A stretch of 64,000 nucleotides of DNA. It comes from an uncultured Clostridia bacterium (lineage in GTDB: Bacteria; Bacillota; Clostridia; Christensenellales; Borkfalkiaceae). Under the pieces are notes generated by a model. It ran no database searches and had not been told where the DNA came from. It worked only from the letters and a program-made list of their open reading frames with translations. Below are positions 6,235-28,641 of the stretch, piece after piece; the first letter of the stretch is position 1; the number at the start of each line of letters is the position of its first letter. The translations under genes and the position numbers were made by a program. The stretch spans positions 48,687-112,686 of the forward strand of contig CANQBW010000001.1 of NCBI GenBank assembly GCA_947589565.1. Reading direction: 5' to 3'.

Positions 6235-6264
6235 TGTTATGTCTGACATAATACTTCGCAAAAT
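6235..6264 (-). promoter_or_regulatory. 30-bp palindrome-containing element, copy A (promoter/operator candidate)
   Basis: Minus strand reads ATTTTGCGAAGTATTATGTCAGACATAACA, with core palindrome TATGTCAGACATA. It can be read as TTGCGA-16 nt-TAACAT. Lies 22 nt upstream of the 5887..6213 ORF. Confidence 0.5.
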
Positions 6265-6273
6265 AGCAAAAAA

Positions 6274-6465
6274 TCAATTTTCGCCGTTCGAATCTCCGTG
6301 TTTCCGCTCTTCCTTTGTGCCCTTTCGTCGTCTGACGGACTCGGTGAGCAAAAATTCGATCTGCCCGTTGAGCGAGCGGAAGTCCTCTTCCGCCCAGCGG
6401 GAGAGTTCGGAAAACAGCGTCGGCGAGAGGCGCAATGGTACTTGTTTCTTTTCGTTATCCTTCAT
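6274..6465 (-). CDS. ribbon-helix-helix (Arc/CopG-like) DNA-binding protein
   Basis: 63 aa. KKQVPLRLSPTLFSELSRWAEEDFRSLNGQIEFLL fits the strand-helix-helix pattern of Arc/MetJ/CopG repressors. Confidence 0.6.
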   Translation of the reverse strand: MKDNEKKQVPLRLSPTLFSELSRWAEEDFRSLNGQIEFLLTESVRRRKGTKEERKHGDSNGEN

Positions 6466-6480
6466 GAGCCCTCCTTAAAA

Positions 6481-7608
6481 TTATTTTCCGAACATGATCT
6501 TTTCACTCGACAGCATCCTTGATATGAGCAGTACGAGCAGCGCGGAATAGACGAGATTCAGTCCGAACGCCGCGAGCGTCAACAGAACCGGCGCACCACC
6601 CGCGAGGATCTCTTCCATCACAAACACGCTGTTGAACACGGGCACGACTACCGCCCAGTCCCCCACGTTGGAGACAAAGGACGTGATGAGGGAGAGCACC
6701 ATCATGAGGATCATGACGACGCTCGTAAACGCCGACGCCTCCTTGACGCTCCGCGAGAACGCCGAGACGGTGGAGATCATCGAGACGATCAGGGGCACAA
6801 GCCCCATAATCGAGAGGAAGAGCAGCAGATAGCTGACAAAGCCATAGCTTTGGAAGAAGACGGAGAAGCTGATCCCCATCATTTTCGGCAGCGAGAATGC
6901 GATGCCGAGAAAGCTCGAAGCAGCTCCCAGAGATGCAATGCAGCAGAGGGGCAGAATCTTGCCGAGCGCGATATCCGACCGTCTGACCGAAGTCGCGAGA
7001 ATGGTCGTGAGCGTCCCCCGCTCCTTCTCCCCGGCGACCGATTCGAGTGTCACGCTCATGCACGCCGAGAAGATAAAGGTGACGACGAGCATGGGAAGCA
7101 CGCTCTTCATGATCATCTTGCCCAAGCTCTCCTGGGTGAGGAAGCTGTGCGGCACGATCGAAAATCTCATTCCGCAGGTCTGAAGAACGGAGTTTGCGAG
7201 GGCGTAAAAGGATTCCCCGGTGCCCTCATCGACGTCGCTCGAGGTATAATAGATGTCCACCGTTGCTCCCGCGTCGAACGAGGCGTCGAAATTCTCCGAA
7301 AAGATGAGATAGGCGTTCGCCTCTCCCTTTTCGACCGCATCGATCGCCTCTTCCGAAGAGGAAACCTCGAGAAATTCAATGCTCGAGCCCGTCCCGATCA
7401 CGGTATTTTCGAGGATCGAGACGATCTGCGACTGCCCCGAAAGATAGACTTTGTAGTCATATTTTGCGGGCTCCGTCTCGTGAATGACCTCTCCGAGCAC
7501 GCTGTAGAGCAAAAAGATGAAGAGTCCCGGCATGAGGAGGGTCATGATCAGCCGCGGATCGTGGAAAAAGCGGTGAAATTCCTTCCGCATGAGCGCAGCA
7601 AGTTTCAT
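6481..7608 (-). CDS. ABC-2 type transporter permease (NatB-like architecture)
   Basis: 375 aa with an N-terminal TM, a large loop of about 150 aa, then five TM helices. The start overlaps the upstream ATPase stop by 4 nt. Confidence 0.75.
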   Translation of the reverse strand: MKLAALMRKEFHRFFHDPRLIMTLLMPGLFIFLLYSVLGEVIHETEPAKYDYKVYLSGQSQIVSILENTVIGTGSSIEFLEVSSSEEAIDAVEKGEANAYLIFSENFDASFDAGATVDIYYTSSDVDEGTGESFYALANSVLQTCGMRFSIVPHSFLTQESLGKMIMKSVLPMLVVTFIFSACMSVTLESVAGEKERGTLTTILATSVRRSDIALGKILPLCCIASLGAASSFLGIAFSLPKMMGISFSVFFQSYGFVSYLLLFLSIMGLVPLIVSMISTVSAFSRSVKEASAFTSVVMILMMVLSLITSFVSNVGDWAVVVPVFNSVFVMEEILAGGAPVLLTLAAFGLNLVYSALLVLLISRMLSSEKIMFGK

Positions 7609-8399
7609 AACACGTCCCCCTTGATCCCGTGATAGATTTCAAAAAATTTCTCTTCGAGAGAGAGGTCCCCGCAGAGGTCTTCAAGCGTCCCCTCGGCGAT
7701 CATTCTCCCGTCGATGATGATCCCCGCGCGATCGCAGAGCTTTTCAACGAGCGAAAAGATGTGCGTGGAGAGAAGAATACTCTTCCCCATCGCCTTGAGT
7801 TCAAGCAAGAAGTCAGTGACGACTTTCGCCGTGAGTACATCCAAGCCGTTGGTCGGCTCGTCGAAGATGACGACTTCGGGGTCGTGCACGATGGAGACGA
7901 CGAGGGAAATTTTTTGCGCCATGCCCGTGGAGAGGTCGGCAACGCGCACTTCTGCAAACCTGTCGATCCCGAACCGCGTAAAAAGCTCCTTCTTTCTCGC
8001 TGCGAGCGTAGCTTTGTCCACGCCGTGCATCGCACCGAAGAAATCGAAGAGATAGTCGGGAGTAAAGAATCCCTCTAATTTGAGCTCCCCCGTCATGAAC
8101 CCCATGCAGTCGCGCACCCGCGCGGCCTCTTTGCAGACGGAGTGTCCCATTACGAACGCATCCCCCTCATCCGGTTTGATGAGAGTCGAGAGCATTCGAA
8201 GAGTCGTCGTCTTGCCCGCGCCGTTGGGCCCGAGCAAGCCGTATATTTCGCCGCCGTAAGCGGAAAAAGAGAGTCCGTTTACGGCGACCTTGCGCGTGAG
8301 ATCGGTCTTTTCGATCCTGCGCTGTTTTCGTGAAATCGAGAAGGTTTTCTTGAGATTTTCCGCTCGGACGATCTCTTTTAACCCGTTTATGTCTGACAT
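7605..8399 (-). CDS. ABC transporter ATP-binding protein (NatA-like)
   Basis: Walker A GPNGAGKTT, signature LSTGMAQK, Walker B VIFDEPTNGLD. The track ORF begins at TTG 8411. The first ATG is 8399 (MSDINGLKEI) and lies inside 30-bp element B. Confidence 0.85.
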   Translation of the reverse strand: MSDINGLKEIVRAENLKKTFSISRKQRRIEKTDLTRKVAVNGLSFSAYGGEIYGLLGPNGAGKTTTLRMLSTLIKPDEGDAFVMGHSVCKEAARVRDCMGFMTGELKLEGFFTPDYLFDFFGAMHGVDKATLAARKKELFTRFGIDRFAEVRVADLSTGMAQKISLVVSIVHDPEVVIFDEPTNGLDVLTAKVVTDFLLELKAMGKSILLSTHIFSLVEKLCDRAGIIIDGRMIAEGTLEDLCGDLSLEEKFFEIYHGIKGDVL

Positions 8400-8414
8400 A
8401 GTACCTCGCAAAAG
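8385..8414 (-). promoter_or_regulatory. 30-bp palindrome-containing element, copy B
   Basis: Minus strand reads CTTTTGCGAGGTACTATGTCAGACATAAAC. It overlaps the start codon of the NatA-like ATPase; the ATG of the palindrome is the candidate start. Confidence 0.45.
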
Positions 8415-8443
8415 GGTAATTTTTAATGTATGATCTTAAAAAA

Positions 8444-9379
8444 TCAGTAAATGCTGCCCGTCCCCACCACCGGCTGCGCGTCTCTGTTGCCGCAGAGAAC
8501 GACAAGAAGATTGGAGACCATCTGCGCCTTGCGCTCGTCGTCGAGTTCGACGATGTTGTCCTCGGAAAGGCGATTGAGCGCCATCTGCACCATGGAGACG
8601 GCCCCCTCGACGATCTTCTGCCGTGCCGCAATGATCGCGGACGCCTGCTGGCGTTGGAGCATTGCCGCGGCGATCTCGGGCGCATAGGCAAGGTGGGAAA
8701 TGCGAGCCTCCAAAATTTCGATGCCCGCCATGTCCGCACGCATCTGGATCTCCCCTTTGAGGACGTCTGCGATCTCCTGTGCACTGCCGCGGAGAGATTT
8801 TTCATCCCCGCTCGAGGAAACGTCGTAAGGATACTGCCGTGCGACCTGACGGATCGCCGCGTCACACTGTGTCGAAAGATAAGCGGCGTAGTTGTTGACA
8901 TTGAAGACGGCACGCGCCGTATTTGTGATCCTCCAGATGACGACAACGGAAATTTCGATGGGATTGCCCTCCTCATCGTTGACCTTCTGGCGGTCGTTGT
9001 TGAGGGTCATTGCCTTCAAAGAGAGCTTTCTGGCGATCCCGACCGTTCCCCGCGCGGGGTTGACCGCCGAGCAGAAGGGATTCACCCAATAGAATCCGTC
9101 GCGCTTGATCGTCCCGTAATATTTCCCGAAAAGGGTCAGGACATATGCCTCGTTGGGCTGAAGCAGCTTGAAGCCGGGGATCATCAAAACACCCGCAATA
9201 ATCAACACCACAGTGAGCGCGACAAACGCAGAATGAATTGCCCATAAAAGCGGAATCGAGGCGGCAGCAGCCGCAAAGATCAAGATCACGACAAAGAGCA
9301 TCGCCCATCCGTTCTTTTCGCGTGCGCTTCTTTCGTCCACGGAATGATCAAACGAAAGAACGTTGTTATTTTGTTCCAT
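8444..9379 (-). CDS. SPFH/Band 7 (stomatin/prohibitin-like) domain membrane protein
   Basis: Start moved to ATG 9379 (MEQNNN) 5 nt after GGAGGG; the track start is a TTG inside the SD. Two N-terminal TM helices, then an SPFH-type body ([30 protein letters not shown] ... [14 protein letters not shown]). Confidence 0.85.
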
Positions 9380-9395
9380 GTTTCCCTCCAAAAAG

Positions 9396-9445
9396 TGATA
9401 TCATTTTGATATCATTATAATAGCACTTTCAAAGAAAGCTGTCAA
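9396..9445 (-). promoter_or_regulatory. sigma-A type promoter of the SPFH gene with a tandem TGATATCATT repeat downstream of the -10
   Basis: Minus strand reads TTGACA (9445-9440), 17-nt spacer, TATTAT (9422-9417). A 10-bp direct repeat at 9396-9405 and 9407-9416 has 11-bp phasing, and each copy contains GATATC. Confidence 0.55.
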
Positions 9446-9457
9446 GCGTTTGAAGGC

Positions 9458-9494
9458 AAAAAAAGGCCCGAAACGGAAAAATTTTCCGCTCGGG
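9458..9494 (-). terminator. intrinsic terminator after ynbB
   Basis: Minus strand reads CCCGAGCGGAAAA / TTTTCCGTTTCGGG, an imperfect stem followed by CCTTTTTTT. Confidence 0.55.
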
Positions 9495-9508
9495 TCGGGT
9501 GTTTTCAA

Positions 9509-10732
9509 TCAGAGAAGCTTTTTGAGGATCTCCCGACAGGCAAGTTTGCAGTGCTCATAGGTGAGTCCCCCCTGAAAATAGGCGGTGTACGGCTCGCGGA
9601 TCGGGGCATCCGCGCTCAATTCGATGCTCGCCCCCGCGACGAAGGTGCCTGCCGCCATGATGACCTTGCAGTCGTAGCCGGGCATATCCCATGCCTCGAG
9701 GCGGACAAAGGAGTCCACCGGGGAGCACTCCTGCACCGATTGAATGAAATCGGTGAGCTGCTTTTCCGTTTTGAATGTAATCGCACGCGTGATGTCCGCG
9801 GGAATTACATCGAGTTTTGGAAAATTCTCGTAGCCGAGCGCGTCCATGCAGCCGCCGATGAGAAGTCCCCCTTTCAGCGCCTGCGCGACGACGTGCGGCG
9901 CGAGGAAAAATCCCTGATAATATGGTTGATAGCCGTAGGCATAGGAGCCGATCTCCCCGCCGACGGAGGGCGCGGTGAGACGGTTCTCGCAAAGAGCGAT
10001 ATACCTTTCTTTTCCCGCAAGATAGCCGCCCGTGGGCGCAAGACCGCCCCCGGGGTTCTTGATGAGAGAGCCGACGATCATGTCCGCGCCGACTTCGGTC
10101 GGCTCTTTTATTTCTACAAATTCGCCGTAGCAGTTGTCCACGAAGAGACACCCCTCAAACCCGCAACCGCGGCAGAAAAAACACATCTTTTGGATTTCCT
10201 CGACGGAGAAGGCGTCGCGAAGTTCATATCCGCGCGAGCGCTGCATGTAGACCATCGCATACTTTTGCCCTTTGAGAAGGTTTTCCGCCTTTTTCAGATC
10301 GGGTTTTCCGTCGGGCAAGAGCGGAAGAATTTCCGCCGTAATTCCGAAATCCAAAAGAGAGCCGTTGCCCTTTCCCCAAACGACGCCGCGGAGGGTATCG
10401 TAGGGCTCCCCCGTCAGAAATAAAATTTTGTCCCCGGGACGTAAGATCCCGAACAGTGCGACCGTCAACGCGTGCGTTCCAGAGAGAATCGAGGGCGAGA
10501 CGATGGCGCGCTCCGCGCCGAAGGTCCGCGCATAGATGCGTGCGAGGGTCTCTCTCCCCTCGTCCCCGTAGCCGTAGCCGGTAGAGCCGTTGAAATGACG
10601 CAGCGCGACCCGCTCCTCCTTGAACGCGCGAAGAACTTTCTCTTGGTTGAAGAGTGCGATCTCGTCGATCCGCGCAAAATTTTCTTTGAGTTTTCCCTCT
10701 TGCTCCGCGATAAATTCCTCAATTTTGTCCAT
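9509..10732 (-). CDS. ynbB: PLP-dependent YnbB / 'aluminium resistance' family protein (Cys/Met-metabolism lyase fold)
   Basis: 407 aa. Contains FNGSTGYGYGDEGRETLARIYARTF...SGTHALTVALFGILRPGDKILFLTGEPYDTL, typical of the YnbB family, which commonly follows miaA in Firmicutes. Confidence 0.8.
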   Translation of the reverse strand: MDKIEEFIAEQEGKLKENFARIDEIALFNQEKVLRAFKEERVALRHFNGSTGYGYGDEGRETLARIYARTFGAERAIVSPSILSGTHALTVALFGILRPGDKILFLTGEPYDTLRGVVWGKGNGSLLDFGITAEILPLLPDGKPDLKKAENLLKGQKYAMVYMQRSRGYELRDAFSVEEIQKMCFFCRGCGFEGCLFVDNCYGEFVEIKEPTEVGADMIVGSLIKNPGGGLAPTGGYLAGKERYIALCENRLTAPSVGGEIGSYAYGYQPYYQGFFLAPHVVAQALKGGLLIGGCMDALGYENFPKLDVIPADITRAITFKTEKQLTDFIQSVQECSPVDSFVRLEAWDMPGYDCKVIMAAGTFVAGASIELSADAPIREPYTAYFQGGLTYEHCKLACREILKKLL

Positions 10733-11627
10733 AAATCTCTATGACCTCCCGCGCCGCAGGTTTGACGTCCTTGGGCGTGATCCAATGCAAATTCTGCGTC
10801 TTTTTGAAAAAAGTCAGCTGTCTTTTGGCATAATTGCGGGTATTTTTCTTGATTATGTCTGACATAGTACTATGCAAATCGCCGTTTTTCAAAGATTCGA
10901 TGACTTCTTTGTACCCAATCCCCTGCATACACTGCGCAGTTTCCTTCACGCCGCTTGCAAGAAGCCCCCTCACCTCTTCGACGAGTCCCGCCTCTATCAT
11001 CTCGTCCACGCGGCGGTCGATCCGCACATAGAGCTCCTCTCGCGGGAAGGAAAAGGCAAAGGCGGAGAAGGGATAGCGGGGAATGGGCAAATCGTGCTGT
11101 TCGGACTTCTTTTTGCCCGTTGCTTCAAAAATTTCGAGCGCACGAATGACCCGTTTTTCGTCGTTGGGGTGCAATTTTTCCGCGCTCTCGGGGTCCACTT
11201 CCTTCAGCTTTTCATAGAGAAATTGCTGCCCCTTTTCGCGGGAGAGCGCCTCGAGGCGGGCGCGGATATTTTCGTCCTTGGGGGTATTTCCGTAGGAATT
11301 GCGATAGAGCAGCGCATTCAGATAGAATCCTGTTCCGCCGCAAAGGATCGGCGTCTTCCCGCGCGACAAAATGTCCTCTAAGATGGGAAGCGCCATCTTT
11401 TCGTAGTCACCGACGGAGAAATTTTGGGTGGGTTCAACGACGTCGATCATGTGGTGGACGACTCCCCCGCGCTCTTTTAACGTTGGCTTTGCCGTCCCGA
11501 TATTCAATCCTTTATAAACAAGAAGGGCGTCGACGGAGATAATTTCTCCATTTAAAAGTTTTGCGCACTCGACAGAGAGGGCGGTCTTCCCCGAGGCGGT
11601 GGGCCCGCAGATGACGAGAATTTTCAT
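10719..11627 (-). CDS. miaA: tRNA dimethylallyltransferase
   Basis: P-loop GPTASGKT, ISVDALLVYKGLNIGTAKP, and C-terminal NTRNYAKRQLTFF. Confidence 0.92.
   Translation of the reverse strand: MKILVICGPTASGKTALSVECAKLLNGEIISVDALLVYKGLNIGTAKPTLKERGGVVHHMIDVVEPTQNFSVGDYEKMALPILEDILSRGKTPILCGGTGFYLNALLYRNSYGNTPKDENIRARLEALSREKGQQFLYEKLKEVDPESAEKLHPNDEKRVIRALEIFEATGKKKSEQHDLPIPRYPFSAFAFSFPREELYVRIDRRVDEMIEAGLVEEVRGLLASGVKETAQCMQGIGYKEVIESLKNGDLHSTMSDIIKKNTRNYAKRQLTFFKKTQNLHWITPKDVKPAAREVIEIYGQN
10851..10880 (-). promoter_or_regulatory. 30-bp palindrome-containing element, copy C (inside the miaA 3' region)
   Basis: Minus strand reads GATTTGCATAGTACTATGTCAGACATAATC. It encodes DLHSTMSDII of MiaA and lies 119-148 nt upstream of the ynbB ATG. 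Confidence 0.45.
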
Positions 11628-17306: not shown

Positions 17307-17324
17307 AAATAATCCCTTTAATAT

Positions 17325-18639: not shown

Positions 18640-18669
18640 ATATTTCTCCCGATTTCTACGAAAAGCATC

Positions 18670-18945
18670 CTTCTGTCATTCTGAGTGGAGCGAAGCGGAA
18701 TCGAAGAATCCCCCCGGTCATTATACAAGAAGTATTGCGCTTCCCTACGCCGCTCTATTTTCCCTATTATAACATATCCAACCAAAAATTTCAACAAAAA
18801 TCACGGGTTACTTTTTCGTTTTCCCCTGTCATCCTGAGCGGAGTGGCGTAGCCACGAAGTCGACGACGCGCCATTCTATTGTTTTTCCAAGCGCGGCGCA
18901 CGAGCCGTAAGCGAGTAATGGATCCCCCCGATCGTTAGATTGTTG
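18670..18945. repeat. modular repeat block R3
   Basis: 18673-18713 reads TGTCATTCTGAGTGGAGCGAAGCGGAATCGAAGAATCCCC. 18828-18929 is a module A copy with an extra GTGGCGTAGCCAC hairpin, and from 18850 on it is near-identical to 831-915. Confidence 0.8.
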
Positions 18946-19013
18946 TATTTTTCTTCACTCTCCCGAACATTTCCTGCGGGATAATTTCTTTTTCAAGGAA
19001 AATACTGTTTTTG

Positions 19014-21362
19014 ATGAAAAAATCTATCAAAATTCTTTTGATCGCGCTCGGCGTGCCGCTTTTGATCTTGATTGGGGCTGTCATCTTTTACTGTTCGGTG
19101 ACGGCGGGCGTCAAGCTCGATTTGAGCAAGCTCACATTGAACCAAACCACCGTCGAAATTTTCGATCGCCACGGCGATCCCGTCGAAAAGGAGAGCGCGG
19201 GAGAGATCGTCCCCTTCGACGAACTCCCCAAGTCCGCTCCCCTCGCCTTTGTCGCCGTCGAGGACAAACGGTTTTACGAGCACAACGGTCTCGACTATAA
19301 GCGCATTGCAAAGGCAGCCCTCATCAACCTGAAGAGTTTCTCCTTCCGCGAGGGAGCCTCGACCATCTCCCAGCAGCTCATCAAAAACACCCATCTCTCC
19401 AACGAAAAGACCCTCACGCGGAAGCTCAAGGAAATGAAACTCACCCGTCAGATGGAGAAGACGCTCTCAAAGGACGAAATTTTAGAGCTCTATCTCAACA
19501 CGATCTACTTCGGGCACAGCGCCTTCGGCATTGAAAATGCGGCAAACTTCTACTTCGGACACAGTGCAAGAGAACTTCTTCCCGCGGAGAGCGCGACGCT
19601 CGCCGCCCTCGTCAAATCCCCCAACCGCTATTCCCCCTTCCAGGATCCCGAAAAATGCCTCTCCCGCAGAAATTTTGTCTTGAAGCTCATGAAGGAGCAG
19701 CAAATTCTCTCCGAGGAAGAGTACAAAACGGCAAAACAAGTCCCCCTTCCCACGGAGCCGACCCTCTCGAAAAAGAGGAGCTTTTATCTGACCTACGTCT
19801 TTGAGGAGCTCTCCGAAATTTTCCCCGACTTTCGATCGGGCGATTCGCTGCGCGTCTACACCTATCTCGACAAAAATTTGCAGGAAACGCTCGAACGGGA
19901 GGAGACGACAAGCGACGTCATTCGCCTTGTGCGGGGAAATGCGGACAACTCCATCAAGGCGATCCATTCGACCTGCGGGATCCCCAAGCGGCTGCCCGCC
20001 TCCACCATCAAGCCGCTCGCAGTCTACGCGCCCGCGATCGAGGAAGACCTGCTCTCCCCCGCGACTCCCATTCTCGACGAGAAAATTTCCTTCTCGGACT
20101 ACTCCCCCAAAAATTACTCGGGAAACTACGAGGGCTACATGAGCGCACGCTACGCCCTCTCGCGGAGCGTCAATGTGCCCGCCGTGAAAGTTTTAAATTC
20201 TCTCGGGATCGACAAGGCGGCAAAATATCTCGAAAAGATGGGACTTTCGATTCCGGAAGAGGACAAGACGCTCGCCCTCGCCCTCGGCGGCATGAAAGAA
20301 GGGTTCTCCCTTCCCGCCCTCGCGGACGCCTATTCGGTCTTTGCAAGGGAGGGAGCATTCTCCTCCTCTTCGACGATCGCGAAAGTGGAAAACAAGGCGG
20401 GCGAACTTCTCTATGACAGAAGGACGCTCTCTGCCACCAAAAACGGAGAGGGCGAAAACAAAGTTTTTTCGGAAGAGACCTGCGTTCTCATCAACGACAT
20501 GCTCAAGACCGCAGCAAAGGAGGGAACGGCGAGAAAGCTCAAAAGTCTCCCCTTTTCGGTGTGCGCCAAGACGGGCACGGCGGGAAACGATCGCGGAAAC
20601 ACCGACGCTTACACGATCGCCTACACCTATGAGGACGTCGTCGCCGTCTGGCTGGGAAACAGGGACAATTCCCCCATTCAAGAGACAGGCGGGGGTGCGG
20701 CGGCAAATGAGACGCTCCGCATTTTAAAGGCGCTCTATAAAGAGCATTCGCCCGAGGAATTTCCCGCTTCGGAGAATGTCGTCACCGTCGCCTTAGACCG
20801 CGAGGAATATGAGGAAAATCATCGGCTGCTCGTCATGGACCCGACCGCGCCCGACTATCTTGCCCTGCATGAGCTCTTCAAAAAGTCGGCGATCCCCGAG
20901 GGCACGAGCACCAAGTTCCATGCGCCGAAAATACAAAAACCGCTCATTTCTGTGAAAAATGGAGCGGTTGAGATAATACTATGTCAGACATATTACTATG
21001 ATTACGAGGTAAAAAGAGAAAGTGAAGGTCAAATTTCCGTCATTTACAGGGGAAGTTACCGAAAAAACATCGTAGATAACTCCGTGCAGGGCGGAAAGCG
21101 CTACACCTATACGATCACCCCCTTCTATCAGGGGATCGAGGGCGAGAGCATCACACTCCCCTCCGTCTTTGTCGAAAGCAAAGAGGAACTTCCCGACGAT
21201 TGGTGGGAAACTTACAATTTGAACTCCTCTTTGGATTTCAATGCTTCTTCGATCAATTCCTTTACAGGGAGCTTATTCTCCTCTTCTTCCACAAAGCGAA
21301 GGTTCGGCTTGATCGCGGGAAAGTCGGGCAGAAAGACCGTGCAGCAGTCCTCAAACGGCTGA
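19014..21362 (+). CDS. class A penicillin-binding protein (glycosyltransferase + transpeptidase)
   Basis: The track ORF starts at TTG 19011; ATG 19014 gives MKKSIKILL. GT51 motifs EDKRFYEHNG and GASTISQQ. Transpeptidase motifs STIKP, SRS.N and KTGT. The last ~50 codons overlap thiI on the opposite strand. Confidence 0.9.
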   Translation: MKKSIKILLIALGVPLLILIGAVIFYCSVTAGVKLDLSKLTLNQTTVEIFDRHGDPVEKESAGEIVPFDELPKSAPLAFVAVEDKRFYEHNGLDYKRIAKAALINLKSFSFREGASTISQQLIKNTHLSNEKTLTRKLKEMKLTRQMEKTLSKDEILELYLNTIYFGHSAFGIENAANFYFGHSARELLPAESATLAALVKSPNRYSPFQDPEKCLSRRNFVLKLMKEQQILSEEEYKTAKQVPLPTEPTLSKKRSFYLTYVFEELSEIFPDFRSGDSLRVYTYLDKNLQETLEREETTSDVIRLVRGNADNSIKAIHSTCGIPKRLPASTIKPLAVYAPAIEEDLLSPATPILDEKISFSDYSPKNYSGNYEGYMSARYALSRSVNVPAVKVLNSLGIDKAAKYLEKMGLSIPEEDKTLALALGGMKEGFSLPALADAYSVFAREGAFSSSSTIAKVENKAGELLYDRRTLSATKNGEGENKVFSEETCVLINDMLKTAAKEGTARKLKSLPFSVCAKTGTAGNDRGNTDAYTIAYTYEDVVAVWLGNRDNSPIQETGGGAAANETLRILKALYKEHSPEEFPASENVVTVALDREEYEENHRLLVMDPTAPDYLALHELFKKSAIPEGTSTKFHAPKIQKPLISVKNGAVEIILCQTYYYDYEVKRESEGQISVIYRGSYRKNIVDNSVQGGKRYTYTITPFYQGIEGESITLPSVFVESKEELPDDWWETYNLNSSLDFNASSINSFTGSLFSSSSTKRRFGLIAGKSGRKTVQQSSNG
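20966..20995. promoter_or_regulatory. 30-bp palindrome-containing element, copy E (inside the PBP gene)
   Basis: Plus strand reads GGTTGAGATAATACTATGTCAGACATATTA. It has the perfect TATGTCAGACATA core. The flanks are themselves partly symmetric (ATAATAC / GTATTAT-like), so orientation is ambiguous. Confidence 0.4.
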
Positions 21363-22363
21363 ATGGACGTCTCGTAGGAGCCGATCTTTTTGGAGAGCTC
21401 GATGATCTCATCCTTGTCGAATCCGATGAGCGGACGAAGGACGGGAAGGGTTACGACCGCATTCGACGAGGTGATCCCCTCGATCGTCTGGCTTGCGACC
21501 TGTCCCAAACTCTCCCCCGTTATGAGGCAGTTTGCGCACGTTTCCTTTGCGACGATCTCGGCGATGCGGAACATGAATCTCCTTAAAAGCGTTACATTGA
21601 GTTCCTTTGCGCAGGTCTTATGAATTTCTTCCTGAATGTGGGCGACGTTGACCGTGATGAGGCTCTCCGAGAGGGAGTATCCCGACAGAATTTTGCTCAA
21701 CGTCTTGACCTTTTCCTTCGCGCCGTCGTTGGTGTAAGGGTAGCTGTGGAAGTGCAAAAGTTTTACGCCCATGCCGCGCTTTGCCATCATGTAGCCCGCG
21801 ACGGGAGAGTCGATCCCCCCCGAAATGAGAAGGAGCCCCTTCCCGGAAGTTCCGACGGGCATTCCGCCCGCCCCCTTTTCGTAGGAGCCGAAGACGAGCG
21901 CGGTGCCGTTTTCGCGGATATCGAGATACACTGTGTGTTCGGGGGTGTGAACGTCCACTTTCAAAGAGGGAAAATCGTGCAGCAGTCTTCCCCCGATCGC
22001 AGCGCTCAGCTCCATGCTCGTCATGGGGTATTTTTTATCGGCGCGATGGGTGTCCACCTTGAAAGTGCCGTCTTGTGGTGCAAACAGCTTTGCCGCCGCA
22101 TAAATTTCGTCGAGAGAATTTCCGACGACCAGCCCCCGCGAATAGGAATGAATGCCGAACACCCGTTTAAGGCGGGACATAATTTCCTCTTCCAACTCCT
22201 CGGGATAGCCTGCAAGCAGATATCTGCCGCTCGTGCGGTGCAGTTCATGGCGAATGCCGCGCATCGCACGCTCCAAATTGACCATAAAAATTCGCTCGAA
22301 GAAGCCGCGGTTCTTTCCCTTCAGATGAATTTCAGAATATCGAATGATGATGACTCTCTCCAT
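21212..22363 (-). CDS. thiI: tRNA 4-thiouridine synthase ThiI (no rhodanese domain)
   Basis: Start set to ATG 22363 (MERVIIIRYSEIHLKGKNR), which shares one base with the nifS TGA. PP-loop motif LLISGGIDSPVA. Confidence 0.9.
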   Translation of the reverse strand: MERVIIIRYSEIHLKGKNRGFFERIFMVNLERAMRGIRHELHRTSGRYLLAGYPEELEEEIMSRLKRVFGIHSYSRGLVVGNSLDEIYAAAKLFAPQDGTFKVDTHRADKKYPMTSMELSAAIGGRLLHDFPSLKVDVHTPEHTVYLDIRENGTALVFGSYEKGAGGMPVGTSGKGLLLISGGIDSPVAGYMMAKRGMGVKLLHFHSYPYTNDGAKEKVKTLSKILSGYSLSESLITVNVAHIQEEIHKTCAKELNVTLLRRFMFRIAEIVAKETCANCLITGESLGQVASQTIEGITSSNAVVTLPVLRPLIGFDKDEIIELSKKIGSYETSIQPFEDCCTVFLPDFPAIKPNLRFVEEEENKLPVKELIEEALKSKEEFKL

Positions 22364-23469
22364 CAGAGTTTCTCCTTCCACTCCCGTGCGCACGCATTCA
22401 ATGCGTCTGCCGCGGTCAAAATTTCCTTCTCCGTGATCTCGGGGAAAAAGCTCATGCGAAGGACGCCGTCAAGTACGTCCTCGGGATACCCGCACGCCTT
22501 TAAAATGCGGCTGTGGGGGTGCTTTGAGGAACACGCGCTCCCCGTTCCGACGATGACGCCGTTTAAATCAAGCATTCTCTGTAAAACTTCCCCCCTCATG
22601 CCCCGCGCCGAGACCGTCAAAATATACGGCGAGCCCGCTTCCGTCGAAATGCGGGTGAAAATTTCCGGGTCGAGGGAGGAAAAGAGCAATTCCCGAAGTT
22701 TTAAAAACTTCTCCGCGCGCACTTTCAGATCCTTCAGCTCCTGCGCCGCATAGAAAAAGCACAAAATTCCGAGTACATTCTCGGTGCCGCTCCTGAGATT
22801 CCCCTCCTGTCCGCCGCCGAACAGGTAGCTTTGCGGAAGGGTCCCCTTGCGAAAGAGCAGCGCCCCCGTCCCCTTGATCCCGCCGATCTTGTGGGCGCTG
22901 ACGGAATAGAGGTCGATCTCCTTTCCGAGCCGAACCGGGATCTTTCCGAACGCCTGAACGCCGTCGCTGTGAAATTTGCAGCGCGGATTTTTGCGCTTGA
23001 CCGCCTTGGCGAGAGCATTGATGTCGTTGACCGCCCCCGTCTCGCTGTTGACATGGACGACGGAGACGAGGGAAGTCTTCTCATCCACCAGGGAGAGAAG
23101 CTCCTCTTCCGTCACGCTTCCGTCCTTTTCCACCCTTGCAAATCTCGGCTCCACGCCGAAATCCTTACATTTTTTAAAACAATTCTCCACGGCGGGGTGC
23201 TCCCCCATCGTTGTGACGGCGTTTCCGCGCCGCGCAAAGGAGAAGATCGCCTGATTGTCCGCCTCGGTGCCCCCCGAGGTGAAGAGGAGCGAGAACTCGG
23301 GAAATAACTCCGTGAAAAATTCCCGCGCCCGCTCGATCTCTCTTCGAACATTCACCGCCTCCGCGTACTGCGCGGAGGGATTGAAATAGTTTTCGGCATA
23401 GAACTTCTCCGCCCGCTCAAGCGCTTCTTTCACGGGCGCAGTCGTTGCCGCATTGTCAAGATAGATCAT
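22363..23469 (-). CDS. nifS: cysteine desulfurase (NifS/IscS class V aminotransferase)
   Basis: MIYLDNAATT, SAHKIGGIKGTG (PLP lysine), and GSACSS (active-site Cys loop). Confidence 0.9.
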   Translation of the reverse strand: MIYLDNAATTAPVKEALERAEKFYAENYFNPSAQYAEAVNVRREIERAREFFTELFPEFSLLFTSGGTEADNQAIFSFARRGNAVTTMGEHPAVENCFKKCKDFGVEPRFARVEKDGSVTEEELLSLVDEKTSLVSVVHVNSETGAVNDINALAKAVKRKNPRCKFHSDGVQAFGKIPVRLGKEIDLYSVSAHKIGGIKGTGALLFRKGTLPQSYLFGGGQEGNLRSGTENVLGILCFFYAAQELKDLKVRAEKFLKLRELLFSSLDPEIFTRISTEAGSPYILTVSARGMRGEVLQRMLDLNGVIVGTGSACSSKHPHSRILKACGYPEDVLDGVLRMSFFPEITEKEILTAADALNACAREWKEKL

Positions 23470-26400
23470 TAAAATTCCACTCTGCCTTCATAGACCTTCT
23501 GCACGGCGCCCTCGAGGATAACTCTGCCGTCCGAGGTGTAGCGCACGATGAGGTCGCCCCCCTTGACTTTGACGGTGACGTCGACGTCCCGTTTGCAGAG
23601 CCCCTTCTCGACGCAAGCGACGACTGCCGCCGCCGCGCCCGTTCCGCAGGCATAGGTCTCCCCCGTGCCCCGCTCGAAGGCGCGCATCTTGATCGTCGCC
23701 TCGTTGACAAGACGAATGAAGACGACGCTCGCCTCGTGCGGGAAGTATTTGCTCGAACCGATCTTGGTGCCGAGCTCCTCGACGTCGACGTCCTCCACCC
23801 TGTCGCAGAACATGACGCAGTGGGGCGTTCCGACGCGGACGGGGGTGACGAGGTAGGTGACTTCGTCGATCGTGATGGGAAGATCGAAGTTTCTGTCCCC
23901 CTTGGGAAGTTTCTCAAAGCCGAGAACGGGCGCACCGAGGTCCGCGCTCGCGGATGCGACCGCGCCGCCGAACCGATAGACGCGCACCTCGCGAATGCCG
24001 CCGATCGTCTCGATCTTCATCGCCTCCTTCTTGACTCTTCCCGTCTCATAGAGGTACTTTGCGACGCAGCGCACGGCGTTTCCGACCATGTCGCTCTCCA
24101 TGCCGTCGTGGTCGAAGATGCGCATCCGCGCGTCCGCCTGTTCGGACTTCTCGATGAGGACGATCCCGTCCCCGCCGATCCCATAATGACGGTTTGCAAA
24201 GTTGACCGCGAGGGACTCGGGGCAGGTGATCTCCCCGTTTCCGTCCTCAAACAGGATATAGTCGTTCCCGCAGGACTGCATCTTGACGAAGGAGAGCTGC
24301 AATTTATGCTTGCGGAGACGGTTGATGTCCACGAGCTCGGTGTTGTACTGGGTGAATTTGCTCGCGATGATGTCGCAGAGGGCGTTTGCCGTATCGAGAG
24401 AAGTCAAAACGGTCACGCCGAGCAGCACCGCATGATGATGCAATTCGATATAGTCGTTGATGGAGTCGACGTCCGTCTTTCCCGTGTAGATGATGTAGTC
24501 GATCTTGCCTTGGTCCATGAGCTCGGAGACCTGCTTGGTCGCCTTGAGCCGCTCGACGACCGTGACGTCGATGCCGAGCGCGGAGATCACCTTCGCGGTG
24601 CCCGCCGTCGCATACAGATTGCAGCCGAGGTCGGAGAACTTCTTCGCGATCGAGACGATCTCGAACTTATCCTGGTCGTTGACGGTGAAATACACGCCGA
24701 CGGGGTGCTGTTTGGTCGGATGGCACATCTTGAATCCCGCCGAGACAAGTCCCTTGAAGAGGGCCTCCTCGATCGTCTTGCCGATGCCGAGGACCTCCCC
24801 CGTCGACTTCATCTCGGGGCCGAGTTGGGAGTTGACGTCGTTGAGCTTTTCGAAGCTGAAGACGGGCACCTTGACGGCGACATAGGGAGAATCGGGATAC
24901 AGCCCCGTGCCGTAGCCGAGTCTCTTGAGCTTTGCGCCCGCCATGATCCTGGTCGCAAGCTCCACCATCGGCACCCCCGTGACCTTGGAAATGTAGGGGA
25001 TCGTCCGCGAAGCGCGGGGATTTACCTCAATGACGTACAATTCATTGTGATAAATGAGATATTGAATGTTGATGAGCCCCTTCGTCTTGAGCTCGAGCGC
25101 GAGCTGCGTCGAGACTTCGACGATGCGCTCCTTCATCGCGTCGCTCAAGTGATAAGGCGGGTATACTGCGATGGAGTCCCCCGAGTGGACGCCCGCCCGC
25201 TCCACATGCTGCATGATGCCGGGGATCAGAACGTCCACGCCGTCCGAAATGGCGTCGACTTCGAGCTCCGTGCCCATCAGATACTTGTCGCAGAGGACTG
25301 GATTTTCAATGTGCTGCGACAAAATCACGTCCATATAGCGGGAGATGTCGTTCTCGGTGAAGGCGATCGTCATGTTCTGCCCGCCGATGACATAGGAGGG
25401 CCGCAGAAGGACGGGATAGCCGAGCTTTTCGGCGGCCTCGAAGGCCTGTTCCTTGGTCATGACCGTGAGCCCCTTGGGACGGGCGATGTGATACTGCTCC
25501 AAAAGTTCGTCGAACCGCTCCCTGTCCTCGGCGATGTCGACGCTGTCCGCGCTCGTTCCCAAAATGCGGACTCCCTTCTTGGCAAGGTACCCGCAGAGCT
25601 TGATCGCGGTCTGCCCGCCGAAGGTGATGACGACGCCGTAGGGCTTCTCCACGTCGATGACGTTCTGCACGTCCTCGGGAGTCAAGGACTCGAAGTACAG
25701 CCTGTCCGCCGTATCGAAGTCGGTGGAGACCGTCTCGGGATTGTTGTTGATGATGATGACCTCATAACCGAGGGATTTGAGGGTCCACACGCAGTGGACG
25801 GAGGAATAGTCGAACTCGATGCCCTGTCCGATGCGGATGGGACCGGAGCCGATGACGATGACCCTCTTTTTCTGCGATTTTTTCACGAAGGAGACCGCCT
25901 CGTCGTGCTCCAAGGGGTCGTAGGTCGAATAGAAATAGGGCGTCTGCGCCGAGAACTCGGCGGCGCAGGTGTCGACCATCTTGAAACATGCCCTGCGATG
26001 GGTGACTTTGTTCCCCGTGAGCATCTCGAGGGCAAAGTCGGTGTAGCCGAGCTTCTTCGCCGCAAGATACTCCGCGCGGGTGAGCTTCTTTCCCTTGATA
26101 CTCTGCTCGAAATCCACCAAATTTTTGAGCTTATTTAAAAACCAGCGGTCGATCTTCGTGATGTGGAAAATCTCGTCGGGCGTGATCCCCGCATGAAGAG
26201 CGGCGAAGACGACAAAGAGCCGCTCGTCCGTCATCTTTTCAAGTTCTTGATAGAGCTCCTCTTTGGTGAGCTTGGAGAATTTGGGCGCGTTGAGGGTGGA
26301 CAGAGAAATTTCCGCGCCGCGGACCGCCTTCATGATCGCCTGCTCGAAGGAGGAGCCGATCGCCATGACCTCGCCCGTCGCCTTCATGCGCGAGCCCAAG

Positions 26401-27512
26401 TCCCGCTTCGCATACAAGAATTTATCGAAGGGCCACTTGGGGAGTTTGACGACGACATAGTCGAGCGCGGGCTCGAGGCAGGCGTAGGTCTTGCCCGTGA
26501 CGTCGTTTCTGATCTCGTCGAGGGTATAGCCGAGCGCGATCTTGGTCGCGACCTTTGCGATGGGATAGCCCGTCGCCTTGCTCGCAAGCGCGGAGGAGCG
26601 CGACACGCGCGGATTGACTTCGATGACGGCGTACTCGAAACTGTCGGGATTCAAAGCAAACTGGCAGTTGCATCCCCCCTCGATGCCGAGCTCCGAAATG
26701 ATGTTGATGGAGGCGGTGCGGAGCATCTGATACTCCTTGTCCGAGAGCGTCACGGCGGGCGCGATGACGATGGAATCCCCCGTGTGAATGCCGACGGGGT
26801 CGAAGTTCTCCATGGAACAGACGGTGATAACGTTCCCCGCGCTGTCCCTGATCACTTCGAACTCGATCTCCTTCCATCCGCCGATGTATTTTTCGATGAG
26901 GACCTGCGTGATCGGGGAGAGCATGAGCCCGTTGTGGGCGATGAGACGAAGCTCCTCCTCCGTCCGCGCGACACCCCCTCCCGCGCCGCCCAAGGTAAAG
27001 GCGGGACGCACGATGACGGGATAGCCGAGGCTCTCTGCGATCTTGACGCAGTCCTCTACATGATATGCAATGTCCGAGGGAACGACGGGCTGACCGATCT
27101 TCTTCATCGTCTCCTTGAAGAGTTCCCGGTCCTCGGCACGGTCGATGGCGTCGAGGTTGGCGCCGATGAGTTTGACCCCCCACTCGTCCAAAAATCCGCT
27201 CTTTGCGAGCGTACAGCCCATGGTAAGGCCCGTCTGTCCGCCCAAGGAGGCGAGAAGGGAATCGGGCCTCTCCTTGATGATCACCCGCTTTAAGGAATCC
27301 TCCGTCAGAGGTTCCAAATAAATTTCATCTGCGAGCATTCTGTCCGTCATGATGGTGGCGGGATTGCTGTTGCAGAGCACGACGTTGACCCCCGCGTCCT
27401 TCAGAACGCGGCACGCCTGTGCGCCCGCATAGTCGAACTCGGCGGCTTGTCCGATCACGATGGGACCGGAGCCGATCACCAATACCTTTTTGATCTCACT
27501 TTTCTTGGGCAT
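23469..27512 (-). CDS. carB: carbamoyl-phosphate synthase large subunit fused in frame to diaminopimelate epimerase
   Basis: A single 1347-codon ORF. Residues 1 to about 1070 are canonical CarB: two ATP-grasp halves and an MGS-like tail ending VLTSLDTANAL...INRLRK. The last ~277 aa are DapF: FVKMQSCGNDYI, GNAVRC and ETYACGTGAAAA, with both catalytic Cys present. Confidence 0.85.
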   Translation of the reverse strand: MPKKSEIKKVLVIGSGPIVIGQAAEFDYAGAQACRVLKDAGVNVVLCNSNPATIMTDRMLADEIYLEPLTEDSLKRVIIKERPDSLLASLGGQTGLTMGCTLAKSGFLDEWGVKLIGANLDAIDRAEDRELFKETMKKIGQPVVPSDIAYHVEDCVKIAESLGYPVIVRPAFTLGGAGGGVARTEEELRLIAHNGLMLSPITQVLIEKYIGGWKEIEFEVIRDSAGNVITVCSMENFDPVGIHTGDSIVIAPAVTLSDKEYQMLRTASINIISELGIEGGCNCQFALNPDSFEYAVIEVNPRVSRSSALASKATGYPIAKVATKIALGYTLDEIRNDVTGKTYACLEPALDYVVVKLPKWPFDKFLYAKRDLGSRMKATGEVMAIGSSFEQAIMKAVRGAEISLSTLNAPKFSKLTKEELYQELEKMTDERLFVVFAALHAGITPDEIFHITKIDRWFLNKLKNLVDFEQSIKGKKLTRAEYLAAKKLGYTDFALEMLTGNKVTHRRACFKMVDTCAAEFSAQTPYFYSTYDPLEHDEAVSFVKKSQKKRVIVIGSGPIRIGQGIEFDYSSVHCVWTLKSLGYEVIIINNNPETVSTDFDTADRLYFESLTPEDVQNVIDVEKPYGVVITFGGQTAIKLCGYLAKKGVRILGTSADSVDIAEDRERFDELLEQYHIARPKGLTVMTKEQAFEAAEKLGYPVLLRPSYVIGGQNMTIAFTENDISRYMDVILSQHIENPVLCDKYLMGTELEVDAISDGVDVLIPGIMQHVERAGVHSGDSIAVYPPYHLSDAMKERIVEVSTQLALELKTKGLINIQYLIYHNELYVIEVNPRASRTIPYISKVTGVPMVELATRIMAGAKLKRLGYGTGLYPDSPYVAVKVPVFSFEKLNDVNSQLGPEMKSTGEVLGIGKTIEEALFKGLVSAGFKMCHPTKQHPVGVYFTVNDQDKFEIVSIAKKFSDLGCNLYATAGTAKVISALGIDVTVVERLKATKQVSELMDQGKIDYIIYTGKTDVDSINDYIELHHHAVLLGVTVLTSLDTANALCDIIASKFTQYNTELVDINRLRKHKLQLSFVKMQSCGNDYILFEDGNGEITCPESLAVNFANRHYGIGGDGIVLIEKSEQADARMRIFDHDGMESDMVGNAVRCVAKYLYETGRVKKEAMKIETIGGIREVRVYRFGGAVASASADLGAPVLGFEKLPKGDRNFDLPITIDEVTYLVTPVRVGTPHCVMFCDRVEDVDVEELGTKIGSSKYFPHEASVVFIRLVNEATIKMRAFERGTGETYACGTGAAAAVVACVEKGLCKRDVDVTVKVKGGDLIVRYTSDGRVILEGAVQKVYEGRVEF
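23472..24302 (-). other. dapF: DapF (diaminopimelate epimerase) domain portion of the carB ORF
   Basis: The junction reads ...NRLRKHK|LQLSFVKMQSCGNDYILF at about 24300-24311. There is no stop, and no SD precedes the internal Met codon at 24281. Confidence 0.8.
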
Positions 27513-28578
27513 TTTGTTTCTCCTTTTTCATGCGTGAAAGAAACCCGTCGAAGAGGTAGTTTGCGTCGTGCGGACCGCCGCAGGCTTCGGGATGGAACTG
27601 TACGGTCTCCGCATCGAGGTCGGGATAGCTCATCCCCTCGCAGGTCCCGTCGTTGGCGTTGACGAAGGTCTCTCTTCCGCAAGAGACCGTCTCCGACAGC
27701 ACTTCATAGCCGTGGTTCTGGCTCGTGACGAACACCTTTCCGCTTGCAAGCTCCTTGACGGGCTGGTTGGCGCCGCGGTGTCCGTACTTCATCTTTCGCG
27801 TCTTTCCGCCCATCGCGAGGGCGAAGAGCTGATGCCCGAGGCAGATGCCGAAGATCGGCTTTTTGCCCGCAAGTTCTCTGATGATTTTGATCTCCGCTTC
27901 ATCGTCTGCGGGATCTCCGGGACCGTTCGTCAGCATGATGCCGTCGGGATGAAGGGCAAGCGCCTGTTCCGCAGGATACTCCGCGGGCACGACCGCGACC
28001 TTGCAGCCGCGGCGGACAAGTTCCCGCACAATGTTCTCCTTTGCGCCGTAGTCATAGAGGACGACAAAGTACTCCCCGCCCTCATTGAGAATGTGAACAT
28101 TCTTACAGGTGACAGCCTGCAGTGCCCCGCTCACCCGATATCTTTTCAGCGCGTCGAAATCGGTGAAGGGGCGGAAGGAGATCGCCGCATTCATGACGCC
28201 GTGTTCGCGGACGATCTTCGTAAGCTCCCGCGTGTCCACGCCGTAGATCGCGGGAATATTACTTTTCTTTAAAAAATCCTCAATGGTTCCCTCCGAGCGG
28301 AAGTTCGAGGGAGCCTCACAGCGCTCCCGCACGACATAGCCGAAGACATGGCTCCTGTCCCCCTCCTTGTCGGGCGTCACCCCGTAGTTTCCGATGAGCG
28401 GAAAGGTCTGCGTGACGATCTGTCCATAGTAGCTCGGATCGGTGAGCGTCTCGAGGTAGCCGGTCATGCCCGTCGTAAAGACGAGTTCGCCGATGGTTTC
28501 GCGCTCCGCGCCGAAGGATATGCCCTCGAACACCCTTCCGTCTTCCAGCGTGAGATAAGCCTTTTTTTTCATTTTCAT
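27496..28578 (-). CDS. carA: carbamoyl-phosphate synthase small (glutaminase) subunit
   Basis: TGMTGYLETLTDPSY, ICLGHQL (catalytic Cys), and HRGANQPV. The start could be ATG 28578 or 28572. Overlaps the carB start by 17 nt. Confidence 0.92.
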   Translation of the reverse strand: MKMKKKAYLTLEDGRVFEGISFGAERETIGELVFTTGMTGYLETLTDPSYYGQIVTQTFPLIGNYGVTPDKEGDRSHVFGYVVRERCEAPSNFRSEGTIEDFLKKSNIPAIYGVDTRELTKIVREHGVMNAAISFRPFTDFDALKRYRVSGALQAVTCKNVHILNEGGEYFVVLYDYGAKENIVRELVRRGCKVAVVPAEYPAEQALALHPDGIMLTNGPGDPADDEAEIKIIRELAGKKPIFGICLGHQLFALAMGGKTRKMKYGHRGANQPVKELASGKVFVTSQNHGYEVLSETVSCGRETFVNANDGTCEGMSYPDLDAETVQFHPEACGGPHDANYLFDGFLSRMKKEKQNAQEK

Positions 28579-28611
28579 CCCTTAGCCCTGTATTTTTTCA
28601 TATTTTTCAGA

Positions 28612-28641
28612 TAGTATGTCAGACATAATACTATGCAAATC
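28612..28641 (-). promoter_or_regulatory. 30-bp palindrome-containing element, copy D (candidate carA promoter/operator)
   Basis: Minus strand reads GATTTGCATAGTATTATGTCTGACATACTA. It can be read as TTGCAT-16 nt-TACTAT. It begins at the thioesterase TGA and ends 33 nt before the carA ATG. Confidence 0.5.

Follow-up and report, generated by a model that had tools for sequence, protein, structure and literature searches.

Five copies of a short palindrome lie in a 64-kb stretch of DNA from an uncultured Clostridia bacterium of the family Borkfalkiaceae, and the question raised by this locus is what kind of factor recognizes them. In the following, the window denotes the whole of this stretch (64,000 nucleotides). 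A preliminary description, made from the nucleotide sequence, had taken the copies for binding sites of a dimeric regulator that overlap promoters. According to the sequence evidence presented here, each copy would represent a binding site for a protein of a PadR subfamily acting on duplex DNA, neither a promoter nor an RNA hairpin, and we assign this reading a probability of about 0.55. The five sites are as follows:

6235..6264 (centre 6244), minus strand: site A, flank TTTTGCGAAGTAT followed by the core
8385..8414 (centre 8394), minus strand: site B, the core ATG being the start codon of a NatA-like ABC ATPase (MSDINGLKEIV...)
10851..10880 (centre 10860), minus strand: site C, within miaA (codon 256 of 302), sense orientation, reading LHSTMSDII
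20966..20995 (centre 20986), no strand assigned: site E, inside the C-terminal region of the PBP1A gene, frame ILCQTYYY, with partial flanks on both sides
28612..28641 (centre 28621), minus strand: site D, flank ATTTGCATAGTAT followed by the core

The 13-mer TATGTCWGACATA that forms the core was found exactly five times in the window (6238-6250, 8388-8400, 10854-10866, 20980-20992 and 28615-28627), where 0.00 occurrences were expected from 100 shuffles, and a scan with two mismatches allowed yielded no extra copy (0.24 expected). The count of five copies is thereby confirmed, and the 30-nt strings and strands first reported proved to be correct on re-reading. The window has a GC content of ~55% and a site density of ~1 per 13 kb; no tRNA and no Rfam family at the gathering score were detected in it. 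Copies A to D, all on the minus strand, share the one-sided flank TTTGCR-N-RGTAY, as had been noticed for four copies, and copy E has merely partial flanks on both sides. The left box reads TACT in B, C and E or TATT in A and D, with the right box being degenerate. The MSDI reading that had been ascribed to all copies does exist by way of the core ATG, but its cause is trivial and copy E is read in another frame, ILCQTYYY, at the cost of an altered right flank. The recurrence of in-frame MSDI and of the peptide LHSTMSDII is due to the single stop-free frame per strand that leads through the flanked motif.

The 22-nt version of the motif, GCRNRGTAYTATGTCWGACATA, was used to scan one genome per species, which yielded at least 112 loci with ~4 chance matches by our own estimate; labels such as L001 refer to the loci and contigs obtained in the motif scans. 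Among the matches listed, all belong to metagenome-assembled genomes of uncultured Clostridia assigned to Borkfalkia, Gallimonas, 'Christensenella sp.' or Pumilibacteraceae, with several matches per genome. The contexts were read from contig pieces of 8-20 kb, with genes called by a codon-model caller, and the open reading frames (ORFs) of the window were read with Pfam support. In DNA that had not been selected for the motif, the site density is ~1 per 20-40 kb. The same contexts were found in different species, namely ahead of thrS (10 loci), carA, folA, pyrE, aroQ, aroH and rsfS, with recurrent sites after the terminator of the thrS T-box and between thyA and folA. Additionally, in-frame sites occur inside miaA (8), spoIIIAE (10), dxs (4) and glmS, and arrays of two to five sites, spaced by 21-25, 32 or 39-43 bp, precede dgt and metK. 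The lengths of MiaA and Dxs across the site equal those of their counterparts in E. coli and B. subtilis, and the motif was therefore written into existing codons and not inserted. The repeats are real and under selection. Viral contigs contained no match to the strict motif, a literature search with the literal motif sequence matched primers alone, and the literature on Borkfalkia and Gallimonas held nothing on cis-elements.

Three observations on these contexts may be added. A two-base variant of the core, TATGCGTGACATA, recurs at non-orthologous loci (L003 1204, L011 7488, L033 5697, L034 4266, L048 1552, L062 7456 and L089 7601), with the altered half always on the flank side. The T-box leaders of the thrS genes of this clade (L007 2718-2892 and nine other thrS loci) score 59.6 bits against an Rfam gathering score of 93 and are therefore missed by default Rfam annotation. 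In L072, L078 and L111, a yabP-like gene downstream of the site is preceded by gCATAgagTAgagt, a sigma-E/K-like -10 region, which together with the spoIIIA and ylmC genes indicates that the clade keeps a sporulation programme.

The protein family of the candidate binder emerged from the genes adjoining the palindrome. A flank-free metagenome scan with the 19-bp palindrome provided 120 loci on contigs with a GC content of 0.20-0.69, some of which may be chance matches. In L141, L191, L211 and L156/L123, a PadR-family gene (PF03551) follows the palindrome at a distance of 9-52 nt. The palindrome is also located upstream of a weaker PadR homologue on two contigs with 69% GC, and likewise at the promoter of the regulator's own gene in L120 and L174, which contain long PadR genes, and in L153/L170. 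In at least seven unrelated lineages the palindrome thus lies 9-130 nt upstream of PadR genes, and this adjacency was counted in ~5 of ~99 contexts, with <0.5 expected by our own estimate. The recognition-helix residues K..LYS.LKRLE are invariant in 8/8 of the proteins. Their wHTH (winged helix-turn-helix) domain is of the PadR-s2 type, with 9QBC/9QBD, 1XMA, LmrR and 5DYM as the closest solved relatives, and 5DYM (cdPadR1) matches it with E = 2e-17. By genomic association and by the published operator class of cdPadR1, the dimeric regulator proposed in the preliminary description can be assigned to PadR-s2, and that the palindrome is the binding site of such a regulator is very probable.

A tblastn search revealed that a close relative of the L156 protein (wHTH 62-65% identical) is encoded next to a motif site within the clade itself (L055, L059, L102, L105, L031 and L233), where the site centre is positioned at ~-54 from a promoter matching the consensus in 12/12 positions. 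This long PadR protein comprises 621-776 amino acids in the clade, with an acidic N-terminus, the PadR wHTH domain (PF03551, E = 1e-19), a middle part of ~350 amino acids that consists to 65-70% of E/K/R/Q/A/L (coiled coil), and four C-terminal hydrophobic segments within the last ~130 amino acids, which are predicted membrane helices. The same architecture is present in contigs with GC contents of 0.28-0.48 (565-651 amino acids) and is kept overall across a GC range of 0.28-0.58; the databases name the protein just 'PadR family transcriptional regulator'. Judging from these adjacencies, the long PadR protein would be the specific binder in this clade with a chance that we put slightly below even.

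With respect to its neighbourhood, the long PadR gene is convergent to the gene of the transcription termination factor Rho at a distance of 0-1 genes and also lies near valS, tyrA, a YgjP-like gene and aroA (L102, L105, L120, L055 and L233), and in low-GC relatives near a Xer-like recombinase gene, lexA and a ynbB-like gene. Several of these neighbour genes themselves carry motif sites.

Several properties of the flanks indicate that the element probably acts on duplex DNA. A/T tracts recur every ~10.3 bp at ±17, 27, 37, 48 and 58 from the centre in a mirror-symmetric arrangement. The mirror-symmetry test of the A/T profile cannot fix the dyad, as any half-period shift also scores well. Three columns are A/T in 109/109 sites, and the pattern persists when the sites are down-weighted to 68 non-redundant sequence clusters; the copies of the window show the tracts too. 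The clade consensus is AGAGTAC-TATGTCWGACATA-GTAC, in which the flank TGCATAGTA matches the half-site GACATARTA in 7/9 positions and shares TA with the core. This auxiliary flank is one-sided in most sites and two-sided in L090, L073 and L076, and since it is a copy of the half-site, the element is composed of three (rarely four) half-sites, CATA-GTAC-TATG-TCWGA-CATA. As an RNA, the consensus folds with -3.2 kcal/mol (z = -0.8), the copies of the window fold no better than shuffled sequence, and the common variants (T5 to C; TATGCGTGACATA) disrupt pairs without compensation. No Rfam family was matched by the element, which thus lacks the marks of a structured RNA.

In 86/96 loci the motif strand shows a positive GC skew, and among loci with anti-oriented genes the GC skew is still positive on that strand in 27 as compared to 8 (27/35), whereas the AT skew flips with the genes. 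The motif strand is G-rich and presumably the leading strand, from which it follows that the auxiliary side would be the first to be encountered by replication forks and by most RNA polymerases. At intergenic sites the upstream gene is co-oriented in 83/96 cases and the downstream gene in 63/90; 19 of these sites are located between convergent genes and 4 between divergent ones. A terminator-like hairpin is present just upstream of about one third of the sites and just downstream of about one sixth. Sites distributed in this way correspond to a 3'-of-gene or boundary element.

From these features we infer the actual binder, an oligomeric or wrapped complex, membrane tethering and a physiological effect. 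The 13/19-bp palindrome TAYTATGTC-W-GACATARTA (class TACT-N11-AGTA) would accommodate one PadR dimer, the extra one-sided half-site, in which GCATAGTA matches the right half-site GACATARTA in 7/9 positions, would serve a further subunit or dimer, and more copies of the protein or a wrap of the DNA would use the A/T tracts, with their ~10.3-bp phase, out to ±60 bp. The outcome would be a bent, membrane-tethered and oriented complex of ~120 bp. The sites would be placed for least harm, that is past stop codons, beside terminators, in tiny intercistronic spacers and in frame inside genes, and would have their auxiliary side turned towards the oncoming RNA polymerase and replication fork. The favoured effect would be that of a polar roadblock or insulator or of a chromosome-membrane tether, and the protein may also repress neighbouring genes, for instance the two ABC-transporter operons at sites A and B. 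A function as tether or polar barrier is possible but doubtful. It is unlikely, though worth stating, that the whole amounts to a chromosome-level system in which an autoregulated, membrane-anchored PadR-coiled-coil protein would act on ~50-150 oriented sites in each genome of Borkfalkia-like species, every site nucleating a bent ~120-bp complex, so that gene borders would be tethered and polar barriers would be permissive co-directionally and blocking from the other side, as in a cross between RTP-Ter and Noc-NBS.

The individual sites of the window can be described in this light. Site A, with A/T tracts at ±17 and ±27, is located 30 nt past the stop codon of a 63-amino-acid ORF resembling ribbon-helix-helix (RHH) proteins and 31 nt ahead of the ATG of a 108-amino-acid membrane protein that heads an ABC transporter; orthologous sites exist in L023, L046, L094 and L108. 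The RHH-like ORF (6274-6465, minus strand; 62-63 amino acids; RHH_5 with E = 3.5e-4, below the cut-off) is also present in these four loci, ends the natA-natB(-416-aa) gene group and is always followed by a motif site within ~40 nt. At site B, the flank variant GCGAGG provides the GAGG of a Shine-Dalgarno sequence, and the SPFH gene ends 50 nt earlier. The core ATG had been suggested as the start codon of the NatA-like ATPase; this assignment is corroborated, as no other start codon is present upstream of the conserved N-terminal strand, and the orthologue in L108 has the same start (MPDII) at a site with one mismatch. Site C lies 127 nt upstream of an overlapping gene of the Met_gamma_lyase family, and its position in miaA is occupied in at least eight other genomes with unchanged protein length.

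For site E, the homologues in L073 and L076 are two-flank sites with one mismatch. The PBP1A ORF (19011-21362, plus strand) overlaps a convergent thiI-like ORF (21212-22393, minus strand) by ~150 nt; such an overlap is uncommon among convergent genes, and a frameshift or a PBP whose true end comes earlier may account for it. The 61 nt that separate the acyl-ACP thioesterase gene from carA are taken up by site D, 19 nt past the stop codon and 42 nt ahead of the ATG, and orthologous sites precede carA in L001 and L069. One 1347-amino-acid ORF of the window (23469-27512, minus strand) joins the large chain of carbamoyl-phosphate synthase to a diaminopimelate epimerase domain at its C-terminus (PF01678, E = 5e-44, residues ~1080-1340).

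Some findings weigh against the assignment to a membrane-anchored PadR protein acting at oriented sites and should be considered together. Many contexts are orthologous, so that the independent observations are fewer than the raw counts suggest, and the left-flank statistics rest on a scan that demanded this flank. The orientation bias is not attributable to either transcription or replication, with five conflict cases each way. The long PadR gene is absent from the 64-kb window, and in Bacteroidetes-like contigs the palindrome adjoins a gene of the GntR family (FadR-type), therefore the sequence of the palindrome alone does not name one family. Finally, the canonical PadR box is ATGT-N8-10-ACAT (PMC3506622), whereas the spacer between ATGT and ACAT is 3 nt in all copies here, which differs from the 8-10 nt of canonical PadR and LmrR operators; therefore the recognition helices would contact other parts of the site, and the TACT/AGTA boxes are at the canonical distance. 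The palindrome, for which the preliminary description had found no operator consensus, hence agrees with a known regulator box in part: it fits TACT(N11-12)AGTA but not the canonical PadR spacing.

Among the alternatives, an ordinary PadR repressor regulon is unlikely as well, and it is a serious rival. The regulator, a short or a long PadR protein, would then repress its own gene and stress or efflux operons (natAB-like and a second ABC operon, at B and A) by occlusion of the 5' untranslated region or by a roadblock, the 3'-end and intragenic copies would be by-products of weak function, and the A/T phasing would do no more than aid bending. Autoregulation and the control of ABC exporters are typical of PadR-s2 regulators (PMC3506622, PMC5050560), two of the five sites in the window adjoin ABC operons, 40 of the 63 downstream genes that are co-directional have their start 17-70 nt away from the centre of the site, and short PadR genes have the site over the TSS (transcription start site) region. 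Such a regulon is, however, difficult to reconcile with neighbours that lack a common function (thrS, carA, pyrE, folA, aroQ, rsfS, rsmF, tsaD, dgt, yabP and others), with the better agreement of orientation with the upstream than with the downstream gene, with the excess of convergent over divergent positions, with sites kept exactly within miaA, dxs, spoIIIAE and PBP1A, and with arrays lying between two terminators.

It is improbable that the binder belongs to another family, either as a GntR/FadR-type regulator or as the small RHH protein encoded beside site A. The GTC-N-GAC core resembles FadR boxes, and the palindrome is found between GntR (PF00392) and SusC-like genes in L139, L154, L215 and L166, but these are different, Bacteroidetes-like contigs, and 0.83 Mb of clade loci contained no GntR homologue of that type. 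The RHH-like ORF precedes a site in five genomes, but this is one orthologous context, on which ground the neighbouring RHH protein was rejected as the binder, and the Pfam match is sub-threshold. The link to PadR recurs in at least seven lineages, this clade included. In the four GntR contexts, the palindrome has the form TTGTATTATGTCTGACATAATACAA and is placed between the GntR/FadR-type regulator gene and the gene of a SusC-like TonB-dependent receptor, which suggests a convergent use of the palindrome by another family.

Quite improbable, too, is a sigma-70 promoter with an operator in its spacer, for which the preliminary description had proposed TTGCAT or TTGCGA as the -35 region, a 16-nt spacer and a variable -10 hexamer; in a variant of this proposal, TAYTAT is the -10 region and the TSS falls into the right arm. 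The element is directional, its flank TTGCAT/TTTACA is -35-like, and upstream A/T tracts occur where UP subsites would be, but the A/T phasing is mirrored downstream. A consensus scan of the window gave, by way of TAYTAT, 9/12 promoter matches at sites A and C; sites B, D and E had no match, and weak matches of this kind exist in 7/90 relatives. Counting from the G of GCATAG as x=0, which puts the centre of the palindrome at x=15, the proposed -10 hexamer spans x=20-25, and its final position (x=25, the -7 position for TTGCAT as -35) is T in 23/109 sites, so that no conserved -10 region exists and the sigma-70 pattern of -35 and -10 hexamers with a gap of 16-18 nt, a conserved A at -11 and a conserved T at -7 is missing; with TAYTAT as the -10 region, none of the 109 sites has a C at the fifth position of the -35 window. 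Moreover, the Shine-Dalgarno sequence begins 1-4 nt past the palindrome (x=22-25) in the orthologues of thrS, pyrE and folA, and a TSS downstream of the palindrome would therefore remove the ribosome-binding site. A transcript that includes the ribosome-binding site is thus compatible with TAYTAT as -10 and fails with the hexamer first proposed.

Canonical promoters are present elsewhere in the same regions. The ten thrS loci show the order TTGACA-N17-TAcAAT promoter, T-box (E = 1.2e-12 in L007), terminator U-tract, motif, Shine-Dalgarno sequence and ATG, and at metK, ssrA and seven other loci perfect or near-perfect promoters are located 90-170 bp from the motif. Sites also occur in convergent regions, past terminators and, as C and E, in the middle of genes. 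In the window, two promoters are relevant as context only:

9417..9445, minus strand: TTGACA-17-TATTAT, 11/12 matches, with TG, ahead of the SPFH gene
29405..29433, minus strand: TTGACT-17-TATAAT, 11/12 matches, with TG, ahead of the thioesterase gene

Site B is placed inside the transcription unit predicted from the first of them and site D ~780 nt downstream of the second, within its unit. Given these 11/12 promoters, sites B and D are therefore located inside operons and not at their heads. The claim that the sites overlap promoters is accordingly not upheld.

A selfish repeat like REP (repetitive extragenic palindrome) or MITE (miniature inverted-repeat transposable element) or an RNA-level element such as a 3'-UTR (untranslated region) stabiliser or processing site is highly improbable: the spread after genes, common between convergent and rare between divergent ones, is REP- or terminator-like, the variant TATGCGTGACATA forms a recurrent subfamily and in other taxa the palindrome is the stem of A-run/T-run terminators in 16/99 contexts, but the 22-mer is retained at orthologous sites across genera and within conserved coding sequence without insertions, the hairpin is unstable and shows no covariation, no Rfam match and no viral-contig copy, the ~10.3-bp A/T phasing makes sense for duplex DNA alone, and the extragenic position, stable hairpin, species specificity and variable location of REP or MITE sequences were not found.

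In the 16 terminator contexts of the flank-free scan (L132, L138, L147, L175, L199, L214, L222 and others), the palindrome tops a longer hairpin between an A-run and a T-run, which is the stem of a bidirectional intrinsic terminator. In L125 (~2480-2560, a contig with GC 0.34), half-motif tandem repeats (TATTATGTCAGA...) encode MSDI/ISDI runs on both strands. Several other Firmicutes (GC 0.29-0.54) carry the 19-bp palindrome in frame (MSDIV/I...) inside a MtaB/MiaB-like radical-SAM gene, ~25 codons ahead of CxxxCxxC (L115, L119, L128, L134, L173, L216, L217 and L221).

A number of further identities were considered and rejected. The CodY box shares the centre TCWGA (9/15), but the neighbour genes are not CodY-like, and LexA and the Fur 7-1-7 box were rejected from the site matrix. 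Sigma-54 needs GG at x=-12/-11, where the columns are pure A/T, and for sigma E/F/G/K the spacing of GCATA...CATAATA is 4-5 nt too short. A leaderless promoter would have TTGCAT at -12..-7 from the motif ATG, without the -11 A. A strong gyrase or topoisomerase IV site would fit the ~130-bp periodic flanks and the 3'-of-gene spread, but the dyad lies on a base pair and symmetric TAT|G cuts would yield a 7-nt stagger instead of 4. Against the core of a tyrosine recombinase (7-bp overlap) speak the central W, which is independent of the orientation (71 A, 38 T), and the danger that ~100 active sites would pose. For an uptake sequence, the sites are much too sparse.

If the assignment to PadR holds, a motif that ranks among the most strongly conserved non-coding ones of an uncultured family of gut Clostridia would have a named protein family and a testable binder. 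A PadR-type winged-helix protein would be encountered in an unusual role, membrane-anchored via a long coiled coil and serving dozens of oriented sites, both at the borders of genes and within essential ones, as opposed to a local drug-efflux repressor, which would bear on chromosome organisation and insulation in bacteria without Noc, SlmA, MatP or RTP. The motif is moreover a sharp marker for the clade. In genome annotation it should not be labelled as a promoter, and start codons (natA, rsmF-like, pflA-like and tsaD) as well as the peptide LHSTMSDII are to be expected that exist solely through the DNA site.

Among the closest known systems is cdPadR1 of C. difficile, a soluble dimer of 109 amino acids that binds TACT(N11-12)AGTA boxes of its own promoter in electrophoretic mobility shift assays and forms higher-order complexes on longer DNA; its operator is GTACTAT(N2)ATTATA(N)AGTA with box 3/4 being AGAGTACTATGTATTATTATAGTA, and about half of its predicted genomic matches are located in ORFs or between convergent genes (PMC5050560). 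The outer boxes GTACTAT...AGTA with 11 nt between TACT and AGTA are common to both systems, TACT-N11-AGTA being contained in GTAC-TATGTCWGACATA-GTAC when Y=C and R=G. In addition, 12 nt of cdPadR1 box 3/4 (AGAGTACTATGT...ATAGTA) equal the flank and left arm found here, and both the cdPadR1 gene and the PadR genes found here have a site in their promoter region. In contrast, the core is GTC-W-GAC here and AT-rich in cdPadR1, conservation is near-exact over 22-28 nt, an extra half-site on one side and phased A/T tracts to ±60 bp are present, and the likely binder would be a coiled-coil protein of 621-776 amino acids with a predicted membrane anchor. The canonical PadR and LmrR operators share the inverted half-sites ATGT/ACAT, autoregulation and binding by a dimeric wHTH protein, for which the binder here is a candidate.

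RTP-Ter of B. subtilis is a polar fork barrier that consists of a strong core and an overlapping weaker auxiliary site, one such site residing in the promoter of the binder's own gene (PMC10331603). The elements described here likewise have a core and a weaker overlapping auxiliary site on one side, provided by TGCATAGTA, and a site in the promoter of the putative binder gene. In ~88% of them the fork would presumably reach the auxiliary side before the core, the permissive direction in RTP-Ter, an effect that is not separable from gene direction. They differ in number, with tens of sites per genome as compared to nine, and in the predicted membrane anchor of the binder. A further group of known sites comprises Noc-NBS, SlmA-SBS, MatP-matS and RacA-ram, which are palindromes of 12-16 bp that occur some tens of times in coding as well as non-coding DNA and are conserved in related species, and the respective proteins link the DNA to the membrane or the division apparatus. 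The motif resembles them in its tens of palindromic sites, and the candidate binder has four predicted membrane helices, whereas the protein family is another one and the sites are asymmetric, oriented, preferentially located at gene borders and accompanied by long phased A/T flanks. The combination of a predicted membrane-anchored binder, polarity, long phased flanks, placement at gene borders and intragenic sites is unusual and leaves room for a new function at the level of the chromosome.

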